The notes under the pieces were generated by a model. The model was not told the DNA's origin and did not search any database. It saw nothing but the letters and a program-made list of their open reading frames with translations. From the NCBI GenBank assembly GCA_951406725.2, contig OX597835.1:42036001-42100000 (forward strand): a stretch of 64,000 nucleotides of DNA, read 5' to 3'. This document shows positions 3,215 through 25,091 of the stretch, one piece after another. The translations under genes and the position numbers were made by a program. Within the stretch, counting starts at the first letter, position 1; the number at the start of each line of letters is the position of its first letter. The stretch is from Octopus vulgaris (Eukaryota).

Positions 3215-3461
3215 CTTTATTAGAAAGCAGCAGAAATATCACAAAAACTGTTGCTCAGAGTTTCGCGTGTTCGTTCGTCGGACAGTTTTGTTATTCAGTT
3301 GAAGTCAATATAAACTGACTAATTATCAAATTATCCTGTTGAAGACAAAGGTAAATACTAATAATAATAATGATACCGCTAATAACAAAACTGTCCGACG
3401 AACGGGAACGCGAAACTCCGAGTAACAGTTTTTGTGATATTTCTGCTGCTTTTAAATAAAG
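3215..3461. mobile_element. Inverted pair of ~80-bp Penelope-like pLTR fragments, each with a variant minimal hammerhead
   Basis: 3215-3295 is the reverse complement of 3381-3461; the + arm reads AAAACTGT-CCGACGA-ACGGGAACGC-GAAA-CTCCGAG-TA-ACAGTTTT. Confidence 0.65.
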
Positions 3462-17458: not shown

Positions 17459-18800
17459 TTATACTTTAAGCTTCTTTCGGTTTCCGCCTACCAAATCCAC
17501 TTACAAGGCTTAGGTTGGCTCGAAGCCACAGTAGAGGACACATGCCTGCCGAAGATGCCACGCAGTGTGACTGAACTCCGAACCATGTGGTTGGGAAGCA
17601 AAGCCACGCCTATATAGAGAGATCTGATTGTATCTATATATCATATGACTCGTATAGGCAACTATGATTCAAATGAATAAAATAGTTATGTTTAGTGTTG
17701 GGAGCTGTGATTGAACCTTGCTTGCTTATGACTAGTGTCAGCAGCTTTGATTAAATTCAGTGAAATATTTTATGACAAATGTAGGGAGCTCAGATTGGCA
17801 GAAACGTTAGCACGCCGGGCGAAATGCGTAGCCGTATTTCGTCTGCCGTTACGTTCTGAGTTCAAATTCCGCTGAGGTCGATTTTGCCTTTCATCCTTTT
17901 GAGGTCAAATAATAAAGTACCAGTTACGCACTAGGGTCGATATAATCGACTTAATCCGTTTGTTTGTCCTCTCTGTGTTTAGCCCCTTGTGGGTAGTAAA
18001 GAAATAGGTATTTCGTCTGCCGTTACGTTCTGAGTTCAAATATTTTCGTCGTTTTGAGACCGCGACTTGTTCACTGACAAAATTCCGTGCTTCATCTCTT
18101 TAGGTTTATAAGTCCAAAAATTGTCTACGTAGTGGATAAGAGCGCGCGCTACTAACCCTCGGATTCTGAGTTCAATCCCCAGGCAGGGACATGAGAAATA
18201 ATATCAACAAAAAATAACATCAGCAAAAAAACAAACAAAAAAAAAACGACTTTAGGCATGAGAACAGCTTCGAAATTCCATCAGAACACTTGATGAAGGC
18301 TGGAGAGTACATCAGTCGAAACTTGGTAACAACAAACAAGATGAGGACACCTCTCCGTCCACTGTAAATAATGTACATAATTCCTGATCCCCAAAATACA
18401 GAATATTATCCACGTTTAAGTAGAGATAGATATTACCACTCGGTATTTAATGCTGTCTCTGTTGCTAATATTTTGAACAGAGTAAAGTATTTGTGACTAG
18501 AAAACTGTGGCTGAATAGAGGTAACTTATGACTCGTGTGGGCAGCTATGATTGAATTAGGAAGGCATTATATACATTTCTTTACTACCCACAAGGGGCTA
18601 AACACAGAGGGGACAAACAAGGAAAGACAAAGGGATTAAGTCGATTACATCGACCCCAGTGCGTAACTGGTACTTAATTTATCGACCCCGAAAGTATGAA
18701 AGGCAAAGTCGACTTCGGCGGAATTTGAACTCGGGAAGGCATTATATAACGTGTAGAGAGATCTGATTGAACTAAGTAAGGTATTTTATGACCAACTTAG
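16900..18800. repeat. Old ~40-bp minisatellite (TATGACTAGTGTAGGGAGCTATGATTGAA-like) broken up by SINE A, SINE B and other insertions
   Basis: The motif recurs at 16930-17145, 17615-17790, 18490-18560 and 18740-18800. Confidence 0.6.
18120..18410 (+). mobile_element. Element with a tRNA-like Pol III head and a degenerate hammerhead-like 3' part
   Basis: TAGTGGATAAGAGCGCG and GAGTTCAATCC boxes at 18130-18178; AACAC-TTGATGA-A-GGCTG-loop-CAGTC-GAAA at 18285-18321. Confidence 0.5.
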
Positions 18801-19574
18801 AGGGATTCCTGGCCATCTGAATACGTGGTATGAATTTAGTTCTTGACTTACGCTGCTAATGTTTTTATGTGTGTGTGTGGGGGTGGTGCGTGAGCGTCAC
18901 AACCTCGTGCCTAAAGGACCCTTGGTGGATCGTTCCTTAACACAAACAAACAAAAGGCTTCTGTCAGTTGATTTTAGTTATTGAAACCGGTGCGAGACAA
19001 ACTAGACTTCGACTTGTCGCGTATCAGATATTGCTGTTTAACCTCGGGCTGGTCTTGACTGAGCAGACCTGTCATTAAAGCTTCTCCCACCATGACCATT
19101 CCGTCTAATTCTTTGACACTGTATACCTAGGACTACATTATTTATTGTGTAATTTATTTTATTTTTTTTTTAAAGACAGTAGTGATTCGAGGGAGATTTG
19201 GCTGCGACTGTTTAGGTCGAGCGACTATTTAGAGCCACGTCTGTCTTCGTTATTGTTGTTTAGTTCTAAGTCAACCGAGATCCAGTTAAGGCCATCTCGT
19301 CGGACATAGTGTATTTAGGAATACGTTGTCAAACAGGTCTCCGCTTTTTAAGACGGTGGGGTGTGATTTGACAGAGATTTTGGGTGCTATTTTTAGCATA
19401 TCGAGAGACCACCCAGAGCTTACCCTCCGTTATCAATCCATTTAATGTCTCACATTCGGTGGGGGTGGGGGTGGGGTAGCGGCGAAGCTTTTAGGGTACG
19501 CGTGAGGAGGGGGGGCACACATAACTGGAATATTTATTTGCACCAGTAACATTTGCACACCCACCCTTTCTCTA

Positions 19575-19880
19575 CGGTGGTGGTGGTGGTGTTAATGTTG
19601 TAGGTGTTTCTAGAAGCGGTGGTGGTGGTGGTGACAATGTGTTAATGGTGGTGGTGGTCTTGATGGTGGTTGTGATGTGGTGGTGGCGACGGCGGTGGTA
19701 GTGGTGTTGGTGGTGGTGATGATAATGGTGATGTTGAAGCTATACCTGGTGGTGGTGGTGGTGATAGTAGTGTGGTGGTATTGGTGTTGTTGTTGGTGGT
19801 GTTTCTAGAATTGATGATGGTAGTGGCAGTGGTGATGTGCTAATGTTGTTATTATTGTTGGTGGTGGTGGCAGCGATGTG
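19575..19880. repeat. Degenerate (GGT)n low-complexity tract
   Basis: Direct inspection. Confidence 0.9.
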
Positions 19881-20407
19881 CTGATGGTGTTGGATGCTGA
19901 GGTGACTAACAACCAAATACCAAGATGTTGGCATCTTATCAGAGACTAGTTAAGCTAAAATTGGTCACTTACCACCCACCGATGACTGCGTATGCAGGAA
20001 TCGACTTAGCGATCACGTTTCAAGAATTCCAAGAGCCGACCTGAAATAGCAGCTAAATCACCCTGAAATCCTACGTTTTTTTTTGTTTGTTTTGTTATTA
20101 TAGTCTTGAATACGCGAGGTCTTCATATAAGATTGGATGGTCATGGTCGGAACACTTTTGGTCATAGGTTTGAAATAGGGTTGATCTGTGCTAAAATACA
20201 AGTTTTATATTTATGTAAAAAAAAAAAACCCAGCGATCTCCAACACTTTTACATCATAGTTGCAAGTGTGGTTGTGTGATAAAAAACTTGCTTCCCAACC
20301 ACATGTTTCCGGGTTCTGACCCACTGCGTGGCACCTTGGGCAAATGTCTTCTACTATAATAGCCTCGTGAGTGGATTTGGGAGACAAAAACTGAAAGAAG
20401 TCCGTCG

Positions 20408-20448
<41 letters not shown>

Positions 20449-20478
20449 TTTAGGATGGAATTTATAAATATCTAATAC

Positions 20479-20611
20479 ATCGCTACGCGCGTTTCCACAA
20501 ATCACATGATTTTAACATCAGAGTCCGTATCCTTGGGATGAGTACAGTACAGTCCGTATTACCCGTGGGCATCCGATTGATCATAATCATTGATTCATTT
20601 CATCAGGCGAT
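20479..20611 (-). ncRNA. Type I hammerhead ribozyme with a 104-nt stem II insert (left pLTR)
   Basis: Minus strand ATCGC-CTGATGA-[104 nt]-GAAA-CGCGCG-TA-GCGAT. Confidence 0.7.
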
Positions 20612-21006
20612 ACTGCATTAGTAGATAAATCACGGAGAGATGTTTATCCGTTCTTGCCAGTATGGAGGCCAATCTGGCTGAGAGGGTATTTCTGTATGTT
20701 CTTGGTAGGGGGAAGTAGCTGATAGGAGTAGAGGAAGAAAGGGCGGGGATTGAGGTATGCGTGGTGGTGTTGGATTTATTTGCTGTTCATTCAGCAGATT
20801 TAAGGATGGTAGTACATTTCTTTGTTTACCCAGAGGGCATTATCAATAGAGGTAGTAATTACATGAATAGCCGCAGAATGCAAGAACTTAGGAAAATAGT
20901 GAATATGATAGGGAGCAAAAGAGAAAGAAAAACCATGACAATGGAGATAGATATAAAACAGAACCCATAAAACTACAGCCAAAGTTAGAAAGAGTCGCAT
21001 GAGGTG

Positions 21007-21590
21007 AAGGCAAATACCCAGAATGGTGTACCGTAGACACCATAAAAAATCTTCTGAGAACCCATCTCTCATCGTTTTCCAATATAAATAATATATTTCT
21101 TTATTACCCACAAGGGGCTAAACATAGAGGGGGACAAACAAGGACAGACAAACGGATTAAGTCGATTACATCGACTCCAGTGCGTTACTGGTACTTAATT
21201 TATCGACCCCGAAAGGATGAAAGGCAAAGTCGACCTCGGCGGAATTTGAACTCACAACGTAACGGCTGACGAAATACGGCTACGCATTTCGCCCGGCGTG
21301 CTAACGTTTCTGCCAGCTCACCGCGTTGAAATAATAGACACTCCACATCTCTGTCGAACCTTGTCTGAAGGCTAAAACGGAATGAAGTGGAATATACAAC
21401 CCACTGGTCCATTATAAAAGATGCTGCACCATAACGGAACTTCACCAATATGCAATATACTTCACCAATATGCAATATATTCTTTGAAGGAACCCTGAAA
21501 ATAATCACATCCAGGGAAAACGTGATAAATAGGGACTCTGAGCCGGTCATATGTAAACACAGGAACAAAATATTATTCATGAAATTTGAA
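21007..21590 (+). pseudogene. GIY-YIG endonuclease C-terminal remnant of a Neptune-like PLE, split by a SINE B
   Basis: With the SINE removed: KYPEWCTVDTIKNLLRTHLSSFSNINNRHSTSLSNLV*RLKRNEVEYTTHWSIIKDAAP*...CNIFFEGTLKIITSRENVINRDSEPVICKHRNK, matching the H..SF..ST.LS..W.LK..WSI..C..C..E..I..N..SE..C(R/K)H pattern. Confidence 0.75.
21094..21328 (-). mobile_element. SINE family B inserted in the PLE ORF
   Basis: AAATAATA target-site duplication at 21086-21093 and 21329-21336. Confidence 0.9.
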
Positions 21591-22044
21591 AAGATATTTC
21601 GAAAAAAGTAACAAATTATAGAACAGTGAAGGAACCCAAAGAAATAAACGAAAATTCCAATATTTGGGATGATACAAACTCTAACAACAGAAACAGTGAA
21701 AAGGTCCCATAAGAGGGGGTGGTATTAGTCAGTTCGGTCAACGAACCCCACTGTGTAGCAGCTGACCACCCGTTGGGTTCAGAATTTATTGAGGAGTGTC
21801 ACACCTTGAATGAAATAGAACAAAGATATGTACTTCCATCCTTAATTCTGCTGAATGAACAGCAAATAAATCCAACACCACCACCACCACACACCTCCAT
21901 CCTCATATTATTATTTTTCCTTCCTCTACTCTCATCGATTACCTCCCCTACCAAGAACATACAGAAATACCCTCTCAGCCAGATTGGCCTCCATACTGGC
22001 AAGAACGGATAAACATCTCTCCGTGATTCATCTACTAATGCAGT

Positions 22045-22177
22045 ATCGCCTGATGAAATGAATCAATGATGATGATCAACCGGATGGCCACGGATAATAC
22101 GGACTATACTGTACTCATCCCGAGGATACGGACTCTGATGTTAAAATCATGTGATTTGTGGAAACGCGCGTAGCGAT
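22045..22177 (+). ncRNA. Type I hammerhead ribozyme with a 104-nt stem II insert (right pLTR)
   Basis: ATCGC(22045)-CTGATGA(22050-56)-AATGAATCA...TGATTTGTG-GAAA(22161-64)-CGCGCG-TA|GCGAT; predicted cleavage after 22172. Confidence 0.7.
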
Positions 22178-22407
22178 GTATTAGATATTTATAAATTCCA
22201 TCCTATAACTGTTATTATTATATTTATCCTACATTATATCGATATAACCATGATGCAACCCCCAAAAGCTGACTCACTAGTCAGTATCATTAGACGGTAG
22301 CCACCATAATGAAATGGGAGCTTTATTTGCACACCCTAACGTTACCTTAAACGAATTTAAAAGATTATATATTTCCTTCCGGTCATTCAAAATGTGACTG
22401 CATGTGT

Positions 22408-22598
22408 ACCGTTGGCGATTTTTCCCCTCTGTCTTCCCTTCTCTGGGTCTTTCCTTCTCCTATGTTTCCGACGAAGAGCTCTGCTCGAAACGTTAAACCC
22501 TCCTTCTTTCCTTCTTTCCTGAGCGTCCAATAATACTATATTTGTTCCACGTCCTCGCGTTGTTGTGTTTTTTTGTGCTTTCTTGTTTGGATTAACTT

Positions 22599-22600
<2 letters not shown>
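22408..22600 (+). mobile_element. Short PLE-type terminal fragment with a minimal hammerhead (U4C core) ending at (TA)n; paralog at 50305-50495
   Basis: GTTT-CCGACGA-A-GAGC-TCT-GCTC-GAAA-CG-TT-AAAC at 22464-22498. Confidence 0.65.
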
Positions 22601-22631
<31 letters not shown>

Positions 22632-22811
22632 CGACTTAAAAAGCTTCCTATATTCGGAATTATATATATATATAATAGAAATATTAAAGGTTATATGGAT
22701 ACAGTTTGTGTATCAAATAGCTAACTTAAGGCGATGGCCTCATGGAGCTAATAAGCGGACAGCTTTATTCTTATTTTTATAAGAATGCCATATTAGTATG
22801 GCGATAACTAA

Positions 22812-22873
<62 letters not shown>

Positions 22874-23095
22874 TATATAGGTGATGAGAGGTAATGGTAT
22901 CAATAAGACCCAAAAGTGTTAGATAATGCTGAGTAAGTGCCTTGGACAGACTATAGTAAGGCTCCAGTTTCGGTGATTATGCGAATGAGTCCAACGTAGG
23001 TCATATATCAGCATGTGTATATATATAAAAAACAAAAAATTGAGAATGAATTAAAAATCCAAGATTGTGAAAGATTTTAAAACATTTATAAATAG

Positions 23096-23144
23096 GTCTT
23101 ACAGCTATTTCCGGGATATTTTATATAAACCCTTCATCGGAGAC
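23096..23144 (-). ncRNA. Minimal hammerhead-like motif (U4C core)
   Basis: Minus strand GTCT-CCGATGA-AGGG...CCCG-GAAA-TAGCTG-TA-AGAC. Confidence 0.55.
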
Positions 23145-23596
23145 GGTGTGAGAAAATGGTTAAGCAATAGTTATTTTAGATAAAATATGAAACAGAGTGA
23201 ACTGGAGAGTCACTTTAAGTAAAACCCTCGATTCAATAAAAACTATGTACAAGTTCTATACTTGGAATGACCAATTCTAAATACTATTGGAACTTATAAG
23301 GTATTGCAATCTTATATGCATGCCATTCTGTCTAAATAATGGATCTACAGATGCAATATCCCTGCATATCCCATGTCTATTTTCTGGCATATTGGCAGAA
23401 TCGTTACAGCGTAAAGAGGAAATGCTTTGCGGTATTTGATCCAGCTCTTTATATCCAGAGTTCAAATACCCTTTCTTGCTTTTCTTTTTTTTATATCTCT
23501 CCGGGATCGATAAAGTAAAGTTTCTGTGAAATACTGGAGTCAATGAGATCAAGTAGTCCCCTTTTCTCGGTATCTCTAGCTTCGAATGTTTGTGTG

Positions 23597-23642
<46 letters not shown>

Positions 23643-24035
23643 CATACATACATACATGTGTGTGTGTGTGTGTGTGTATATATAGATATGTATATATGTG
23701 TATATAGATATATGTATATATATATGTCGTATATATATATGTATGTGTCTGTTTGTACCCTTCCCTTCGTTTGACAACCGATGTTGGTGTGTTTACGTCC
23801 CCGTAACTTAGCGGTTCGGCAAAAGAGACCGACAGAATAAGTACCTCAGTTTGCAAAGAATAAGTCCTGGGCTCGATTTGCTCGACTAAAGGCGGTGCTC
23901 CAGCTTGGCCGCAGTCAAATGATCGAAACAAATAAAAGAATATGTTAGTGTGAGTGTGTGTGTGTTAAAGGGATAACTTATCCTGGCGGATGCCGTATCG
24001 TCTTAAAAAAAGCTATAGGTGCCAGATATCCAAGA

Positions 24036-24886
24036 ACAGTCCGAGTACATAGTACTCAAGCTAAAGAGAGATATTGATACTTGTAAGCTTCCCTTGTTCC
24101 GCGTTCCTATTCAGAATTGCAAATGGATCTTTTCGGTTTGAACGGCAGTTTTTTCTAGCGGTGTCATATGAAATTGTCACCCATAATTATGACCCTAGTA
24201 TCGATCTATTGCATTTCAATCTGTTTTAGGGTTAGGGTTAGTTAGAGGTGGGGAGAAGGGTATCTTTTTTCTTTACAAATGTAAATAAACCCAATCTGTT
24301 TCTTAAACGAGGGACATTTTCATACGGCACAGAATGTTTTTCACCTCAATAGACGTCAATGATTAGTTGAAATTGCAGAAATTGAAGAAGAAAACCCAAC
24401 AAATATCTTACAAACTATAGAATTTTCTCAATAAAGCCAAGAGAAAAAGATGTTTTATAAACACATTCTACCAGTATACGAAGTTTTAAAGTGTTTAGTT
24501 ACGTGGAAATTATTTTAAAAAACTGCCGTTCAAACGGAAAAGATCCCTGCAAGTATTCCGTAGAGTATGTTAATGATAACCAAAATGTGAGTGGATATTT
24601 ATTCACATCAAAAACTTGTTTAATCAAAAGAGTTTTCTATATCATACGTAACAACGAGCAACATATGTTTCTACTGCAGCAACTGCACATTGCTCTCTAT
24701 GCAATTATGCATCCTAGTGGCGGCAGTTTCATCCAGGGTCCCCTGGGCTATCAAATTCTATACTCTTCGGAATATTTGCAGTTCTAAATAGGAACACGGA
24801 ACTATCCAAGTGAAGATTATGAGTATCAGTATCTCTTTTAAGCTTGAGTATCATGTAATTGGACAGTTGTGGATAGCCGGCATCTG
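24036..24886. mobile_element. Old MITE with ~110-bp TIRs (Tc1/pogo-like ends) hosting a nested MITE
   Basis: 24040-24124 plus 24547-24559 is the reverse complement of ~24769-24885 (ACTCAAGCT...GAGATA(T/C)TGATACT...GTTCCTATT). Confidence 0.6.
24125..24546 (+). mobile_element. MITE family C with ~30-bp TIRs and internal TTAGGG-like repeats; copies at 37036-37545, 59920-60316, 63073-63378 and 63741-64000
   Basis: TIR GGATCTTTTCGGTTTGAACGGCAGTTTTT / AAAAACTGCCGTTCAAAC(G/C)GAAAAGATCC; probable 8-bp TSD TTGCAAAT/CTGCAAGT. Confidence 0.85.
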
Positions 24887-24906
24887 TCTGTCTGTCTATC
24901 TATCTA

Positions 24907-24937
<31 letters not shown>

Positions 24938-25091
24938 TGTCTGGCTATCAATCTATCTTGTCTGGCTATCAATCTATCAATCTATCTATCTGTCTTGGGC
25001 AAATGTCTTCTACTATAGCCTCGTGCCGACCAAAGTGGATCTGGTAGACGGAACTGAAAGAAGCTGTCGTATACACACACACACGCGCGCG

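Follow-up and report, generated by a model that had tools for sequence, protein, structure and literature searches.

Hammerhead ribozymes tolerate long extensions of stem II, as type II hammerheads and aptazymes illustrate. In the discontinuous CLEC2 hammerhead of mammals, which Martick reportedly described in 2008, the halves of a type III motif are said to be separated by a long insert in stem I, within the 3′ UTRs of host mRNAs. The motif described here also has a long insert, but in stem II rather than stem I, and in a retrotransposon rather than a host mRNA. Penelope-like elements (PLEs) carry minimal hammerheads with a palindromic stem III, for which a dimer mechanism was proposed: stem III would arise when the palindromes of two copies on one tandem transcript pair with each other (PMC4209133; PMC6765202). 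These motifs occur as opposite-strand pairs 100–700 bp apart and have low activity in vitro; their helix II, at 6–8 bp, was itself called 'larger than usual', and G10.1–C11.1 is highly conserved in them, whereas our family A lacks it (Cervera and de la Peña 2014, PMC4209133). The hammerheads of Hydra-clade PLEs (Craig et al. 2021, PMC8557442 File S2, including Hydra-1_Obim) agree with ours in host clade, 3′ UTR position, type I form, a stem I of 4–7 bp, a near-palindromic 4-bp stem III and a frequent 1×1 mismatch at the base of stem II. The relaxed search in that work allowed 7–17 nt between the core halves, and its 26 published rows for the clade, from 25 families, reach no more than about 26 nt from A9 to G12, compared with 55–107 nt in the present families (PMC8557442).

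PLE-X1 of the spike-moss Selaginella, marked as deviating in the same table, also has an extended stem II region, which by our count spans about 54 nt in PLE-X1_sMoe, the longest PLE case tabulated there, but concerns single cases in endonuclease-less plant elements, at half the length and with another stem III; the table gives no family-wide covariation (PMC8557442 File S2). The 'HHR_half_core' entries of Naiad elements (PMC8557442 Methods and File S1; eight families including Naiad_Ovul) likewise have halves 35–50 nt apart, beyond the descriptor limits and in PLE 3′ UTRs. Naiad elements have an N-terminal endonuclease, and in those files their motifs are never modelled as complete hammerheads, whereas the motifs here have three stems that covary. 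In the literature that we searched, a long stem II across a whole lineage of PLE hammerheads is nowhere described, although Repbase, Dfam and further supplements may contain such families; the part of a 2026 retrozyme preprint available to us (10.64898/2026.07.22.740005) leaves stem II unmentioned.

We analysed a 64,000-nt stretch of the Octopus vulgaris genome (contig OX597835.1; hereafter the window, in which all positions are given). A type I hammerhead motif was located by sequence and fold in the right arm of an inverted pair (22045–22183, + strand). Its stem I is formed by ATCGC (22045–22049) and GCGAT (22173–22177) and is extended, past a 3-nt bulge, by six further pairs (22036–22041/22178–22183). 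The core halves CTGATGA (22050–22056) and GAAA (22161–22164) lie 104 nt apart, and stem III is the palindrome ACGCGCGT at 22164–22171, which has 8 nt and no loop, with the predicted cut after A22172. The left arm carries the mirror image on the − strand (20484–20606), with core, 104-nt stem II, palindromic stem III and a predicted cut after 20484. A perfect core, a 5-bp stem I, a palindromic stem III and halves 104 nt apart had been claimed for both arms in a preliminary description, and all lie where it placed them. The sequence has the CUGANGA and GAAA core, an A15.1–U16.1 pair and an NUH cleavage triplet, which is GUA in the window and in 58 of 65 copies of its family (family A) and GUC in 30 of 41 copies of family B. 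Position 10.1:11.1 is A·G in the window rather than the usual G10.1–C11.1, a pair that is strongly favoured in hammerheads without being obligatory; U·U is tolerated at this position in other hammerheads (PMC3088659; also PMC8557442 File S2).

The preliminary description had also argued that the expanded stem II would escape length-limited searches and had called for a search with a longer stem II. Indeed, none of the 33 Rfam matches at E ≤ 5 over 18000–25000 was to a hammerhead family, and both arms were thus missed, whereas a descriptor fitted to the motif, which asked for the core, a stem I of 5 bp, a stem III of 3 bp, 7 of the 8 basal pairs of stem II and an insert of 20–200 nt, matched twice in the window, once in each arm, and not at all in each of 60 shuffled windows. 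Judged from sequence, these RNAs, whose self-cutting is a prediction, likely represent a variant overlooked by standard ribozyme searches. Between the arms, 6 of the 104 positions of the insert differ and 0 of 29 in the core, stem I and stem III, as first reported; as a sign of selection, however, the contrast was rejected, because it is at chance level (Fisher p = 0.34).

Both arms belong to a dead, broken, 5′-truncated Penelope-like copy. Without gaps, 20429–20711 and 21945–22227 are 96% complementary over 283 nt; gapped comparison stretches the arms to 20826 and 21819, about 380 bp plus the (TAA)n edge, in keeping with the length originally given. The left arm (20451–20826, −), an inverted pLTR, is an inverted 5′-truncated copy of the element's 3′ end and abuts a (TAA)n tract. 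The sense strand continues with an ORF remnant from directly after the RT thumb region (20827–20999, about 80% match to L048, L049 and L061), behind which about 600 nt found in longer copies are absent, and then with the 5′ part of a decayed Hydra-type GIY-YIG endonuclease coding region (21000–21091). A dispersed repeat foreign to the element follows (21092–21328); many element-independent loci match it, family copies join 21091 to 21329, and its size and dispersal suggest that it is a SINE. The endonuclease resumes, with stops, at 21329–21611 (+), as judged from its translation and by-eye comparison with Hydra alignments. The decayed GIY-YIG C-terminus reported between the arms is thus present, but as a remnant split by the repeat. 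Related copies of this abundant SINE-like repeat lie near 17796–17970 and 18609–18732, and also within or beside other family copies.

An inferred 3′ UTR of about 430 nt (21612–22044, +) contains open frames without a Pfam match; one of them, 21713–22012, was considered as the endonuclease C-terminus and rejected on that ground and because the real endonuclease stops at 21611. The right arm alone has a tail of about 165 nt (22206–22372, +) that is common to many copies, and the element therefore continues to about 22372, not to the end at 22205 that had been proposed. As the last 34 nt of the tail match the stretch immediately upstream of the RWK-bearing N-terminal frame of L063, the tail likely represents the beginning of the following tandem unit, with its 5′ UTR and first codons. 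The insertion consists of the inverted copy, from 20826 to 20451, followed by the direct copy (20827–22372), and both arms are presumably products of a single insertion; inverted 5′-truncated copies and one-sided tails are standard for PLEs (PMC8557442).

The locus had been labelled Penelope/Neptune-like. It is a Penelope-like element with an inverted pLTR, but its protein motifs, compared by eye with published descriptions and alignments (PMC8557442 section 11 and supplement), point to the Hydra clade rather than to Neptune. In three longer copies (L061–L063) RT, thumb, linker and endonuclease follow in this order, giving a C-terminal GIY-YIG endonuclease; PF01541 matched weakly, in 2 of 10 aligned endonuclease fragments, neither from family A. 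The N-terminal RWK motif is present in L063, the one decayed copy read at the DKG/DKT position, where it has DKS and the Hydra clade is expected to have DKT. Translations of L062 and L064 contain a CxCX5C linker, and the endonuclease, judged by eye in L065, the window, L124 and L152, has CxxC and CxH around conserved E and N but no CCHH. Neptune was rejected on the absence of the endonuclease CCHH motif and the CX2-5CxxC linker, and Naiad, which has an N-terminal endonuclease, because here the endonuclease comes after RT. The left end adjoins (TAA)n and many copies, by impression rather than count, terminate in TA-rich runs; the Hydra clade targets (TA)n-type microsatellites. The hammerhead departs from the clade's canonical compact form in its stem II, 104 nt against at most about 26.

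The stem II insert of the right arm (22057–22160, +) begins with the A·G mismatch and an 8-bp basal helix (22058–22065/22152–22159), followed by a 1-nt bulge and 5 further pairs (22066–22070/22146–22150); the remaining interior has no well-supported fold. Pairing at the base of the insert had been predicted, and the basal helix does form in the unconstrained MFE fold of both arms. Family A has two adjacent G–U pairs near the base of stem II. The insert carries the 9-mer ATACGGACT twice, as previously noted, at 22097 and 22126; a repeated 9-mer arises in 1.5% of 5,000 shuffled inserts. This 9-mer and two motifs of the window hammerhead were not found in the supplement text of PMC8557442, where line-wrapping could hide a split match. 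Stability of the window insert is not unusual against shuffles (z of −0.43 and −0.66 for the two arms), and alignment folds give z of −0.5 and −0.4 for the family A subsets A1 and A2, +0.3 for family B, −5.4/−6.1 for C and −3.5 for D. The interior is a strong hairpin in C and D and has no clear fold in A and B. The idea that the insert arose when the 5′ half duplicated in tandem was rejected (p = 0.14 against 2,000 shuffles).

To place the window copy among its relatives, we searched the genome. The arm region has about 1,470 first-look candidate copies, 40 of which were scored, with full-length matches 86–100% identical. An endonuclease search yielded 13,160 candidates, of which 150 were scored and 70 checked downstream. 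Endonuclease homology, with the motif unused, led to families B, C and Y, and like family A these were first reached in this way rather than through the motif. Insert lengths are tight within each family and range from 55 to 107 nt overall: 104/105 nt in A, 77 in B, 88/93 in C and 55 in Y, all endonuclease-linked, and 77 in the unlinked family D. Family D and several minor families came from pattern searches. Genome-wide patterns gave 222 matches with inserts of 79–140 nt and 89 with inserts of 8–72 nt, and family-specific patterns gave 67 and 151, with 0 in each reversed control. From the loci examined we extracted 235 instances, in clusters of 76, 48, 37 and 22 with 52 in small groups or single; copies near modal length were kept for counts (65 A, 41 B, 35 C and 16 D).

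Within the 1.5 kb upstream of the motif, a sense endonuclease is present in 11 of 65 A, 17 of 41 B and 4 of 35 C copies, and in most linked copies the motif follows the endonuclease match by about 300–630 nt on the sense strand, where Hydra hammerheads also lie. The same 1.5-kb search upstream of 16 D copies and 17 minor-family copies returned no sense endonuclease, and family D is therefore tied to the lineage only by its motif. A tree built from 45 short endonuclease rows places A, B, C and Y on the same side of a 97/93 branch, together with one outside protein; a single origin of the long-insert families is possible on these sequences. Of 106 scored family A 5′ ends, a set biased by the query, 27 fall at 21970–21999, with many short head-to-head pairs; this cluster is possibly a transcription start or a preferred template-switch point.

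Family Y (L308:1508–1625; L152, L309–L319) is a very young Hydra-type family with 1,685 first-look candidates and many inverted pairs, and scored full-length copies are 95–100% identical. Its hammerhead motif has a 55-nt stem II, a perfect core, G10.1–C11.1 and a GUC site, and an intact copy may exist. Further minor families (L249, L251, L270, L272–L276 and L283–L287), of few copies each, have the same core and stem I with unrelated inserts of 63–100 nt, the base of which pairs in several of them. Contigs of run X6, labelled as another organism, carry family A over window positions 21330–22400, so family A is not confined to this assembly. A word search outside the genome returned no longer protein relative, viral contigs no relatives and metagenome contigs no match to the one lineage pattern searched; these blanks say little, because the collections contain little animal DNA.

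Comparison between families separates the motif from its surroundings. Collecting paralogs had been proposed as a check on the motif, and across families core and stems are better conserved than the flanks, which are alike at 7–16 of 25 positions. By commonest letters, core variation is limited to N7, which is U, A or G, and to a U4-to-C change in family B; GAAA is invariant. Basal stem II was in no search pattern. It pairs at 8 of 8 positions by commonest letters in A1, A2, B and C, compared with 5–7 of 8 when 3′ strands are swapped between families; family D, at 5 of 8 in ungapped register, is no better than swapped. Stem I changes from G–C to A–U between families A and B, the basal helix of stem II is compensatory between A, B and C but weak in D, and stem III is palindromic or nearly so in three other sequences. 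Position 10.1:11.1 is A·G in families A and D, with no standard pair in any of the 65 A copies, and G–C in B, C and Y.

Among 20 natural copies drawn from four families, both sides vary in 6 of the 18 named pairs, across stems I, II and III, and 85% of cells pair, compared with 15–48% when partners are slid. The covariation score is reached by 0 of 500 shuffles; it rests on 4–5 lineages, not 20 events, and two of five shuffle measures, those counting pairs or pair types, are not above control (458/500 and 499/500). Within families, alignment folds of decayed A and B copies were uninformative on covariation, and conservation of stem I and core is biased because both are part of the extraction patterns; per-region decay was discarded for the same bias, and the A2–A3 comparison (three copies, misregistered flanks) was used for N7 only. 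We conclude that the long stem II is not an accident of the window copy and probably reflects a lineage-wide expansion.

The most probable reading, in our judgement, is that the window holds a dead 5′-truncated Hydra-clade copy with an inverted second 3′ end, each arm of which has a hammerhead motif with a 104-nt stem II inherited from the lineage-wide expansion, and that an active ancestor cut its tandem transcript as a dimer, with the insert folded as a closed arm. The motif would then work like a dimeric PLE type I hammerhead within a Hydra-clade element, a membership that we treat as provisional. In this mechanism, the palindromic stems III of two tandem pLTR copies would pair and complete the active site, the insert would fold away as one closed arm, and selection would have kept the catalytic fold while the insert interior drifted. 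Being a palindrome without a loop, stem III could form only between two copies. A hammerhead-compatible fold costs about 5 kcal/mol per window arm as computed, a cost that the predicted palindrome duplex, at about −13 kcal/mol, covers. The energy of the duplex between arms was better than in shuffles (p ≤ 0.05) for only 40% of the A copies and 38% of the D copies; the minor families gave 0–50%. In the window itself, the two arms are unlikely to cut, because a transcript would hold one of them in sense and the other in antisense orientation, and these would pair with each other.

Cleavage in the ancestor was probably slow, conditional or protein-dependent. Genomic copies end 30–200 nt downstream of the predicted cut site: of 105 scored family-A-like 3′ ends, required to reach 22170, possibly including sister families and running on into microsatellite, 52 fall at 22200–22229, 22 at 22360–22379 and 3 at 22170–22179. 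Because such copies came from RNA left uncut at the site, slow or protein-dependent cleavage would follow. The distribution also fits a report on an anole PLE in which uncut RNA is the main template and hammerhead cleavage needs protein (PMC11167929). Three RNA runs placed 67–116 reads per run, mostly less than 90% alike and in both mate orientations, and these sparse, diverged reads showed no pile-up of read ends at the cut; being few and diverged, they decide nothing.

The same 3′ ends, only 3 of them at 22170–22179, could mean instead that catalysis has been retired and that the motif persists for a structural or dimerisation role in the pLTR RNA, with an arm that grew once cleavage ceased to matter. 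The departures from consensus, A·G at 10.1:11.1 in family A and U4C in family B, point the same way, and hammerhead mutants of another PLE insert unimpaired in vitro (PMC11167929). We nevertheless regard retirement as doubtful, for the invariant catalytic letters are kept in families whose endonucleases are only about 40–50% identical and whose flanks are near random, while N7 changes freely. A 1×1 mismatch at the base of stem II occurs in 15 of the 26 published Hydra rows by our count (PMC8557442), and the young family Y has a perfect core with G10.1–C11.1. Somewhat less doubtful, but still unlikely, is that the insert works as a module with its own function: as a platform it would bind the RT or endonuclease that the element encodes, make cleavage, translation or template choice protein-dependent, and diverge by family in a lock-and-key manner. 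Every multi-copy family of the lineage keeps a long arm of tight length; the 89 short-insert matches contain no apparent recurring compact family and read as deletion derivatives. A short motif near the start of the insert is common to families A and B, and in the anole PLE, whose hammerhead cuts only with protein, the protein-binding region overlaps stem II (PMC11167929). Yet family A interiors are alike at only 2–5 of 21 positions with those of B, C and D, lengths vary from 55 to about 107 nt, and alignment folding across families found no common inner fold. The repeated motif is confined to family A (among 107 copies of B, C and D, 2 have it, once each), and the interior has changed between A1 and A2 no less than the flanks have (6 of 61 positions against 2 of 33). 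The RT-recognition or regulatory domain that had been suggested is therefore unsupported: interiors differ, the 9-mer is family-specific and the pattern of arm differences is that of chance. We would give an equally small chance to its strongest version, a lineage of Hydra-clade retrotransposons with natural allosteric hammerheads, in which a family-specific stem II arm of 55–107 nt binds its own RT and gates cleavage like an aptazyme and, by extension, the PLE clades Naiad and Chlamys, reported to lack hammerheads, and other retroelements hide many long-arm hammerheads beyond the reach of present descriptors.

Least probable by far is that the insert is removed or bypassed in RNA, either as an intron or by a compact alternative fold through a second CTGATG at 22135. 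PLE pLTRs can contain introns that alter the hammerhead (PMC4209133), and this core-like CTGATG with a short hairpin does precede GAAA. The intron reading was rejected: three RNA runs, at low depth, gave no joint that removes the insert, and the insert ends are not GT...AG. Genomic copies, although RNA-derived, all keep the insert; the second core lacks A9 and a stem I partner, with the duplication that would explain it at p = 0.14; and the same basal helix closes the long hairpins into which families C, D and Y fold. Dimeric cleavage by an active ancestor, with the insert as a closed arm, remains our preferred reading.

Surveys of ribozymes in animal genomes depend on short stem II limits, and such limits hide real motifs. 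With a lineage of thousands of candidate copies and a stem II of 55–107 nt, the claimed absence of hammerheads from some PLE clades is worth retesting. Families that differ in the arm and share the core, one of them very young with copies 97–100% identical, form a natural series for studying dimer cleavage and protein dependence. The surprise is limited, since stem II cases of about 50 nt were already tabulated in spike-moss elements and long extensions are known to be tolerated.

One further locus (L281; G000:C7:117938300–117941200) has, over 1.8 kb, three hammerhead motifs of family A: two stand head-to-head and the third repeats the sense of the first, so that tandem and inverted arrangements occur naturally together. 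Right behind the window element, a different repeat carries an ordinary compact PLE-type minimal hammerhead motif (22468–22498, +) with a 4-bp stem II and an ACGT palindrome. Another compact motif at 3390–3429 (+) has 10 nt between its core halves and a stem III that resembles published Hydra rows, and a similar motif occurs in an inverted pair elsewhere in the genome (L126). Compact and long hammerhead forms are both present in this genome.
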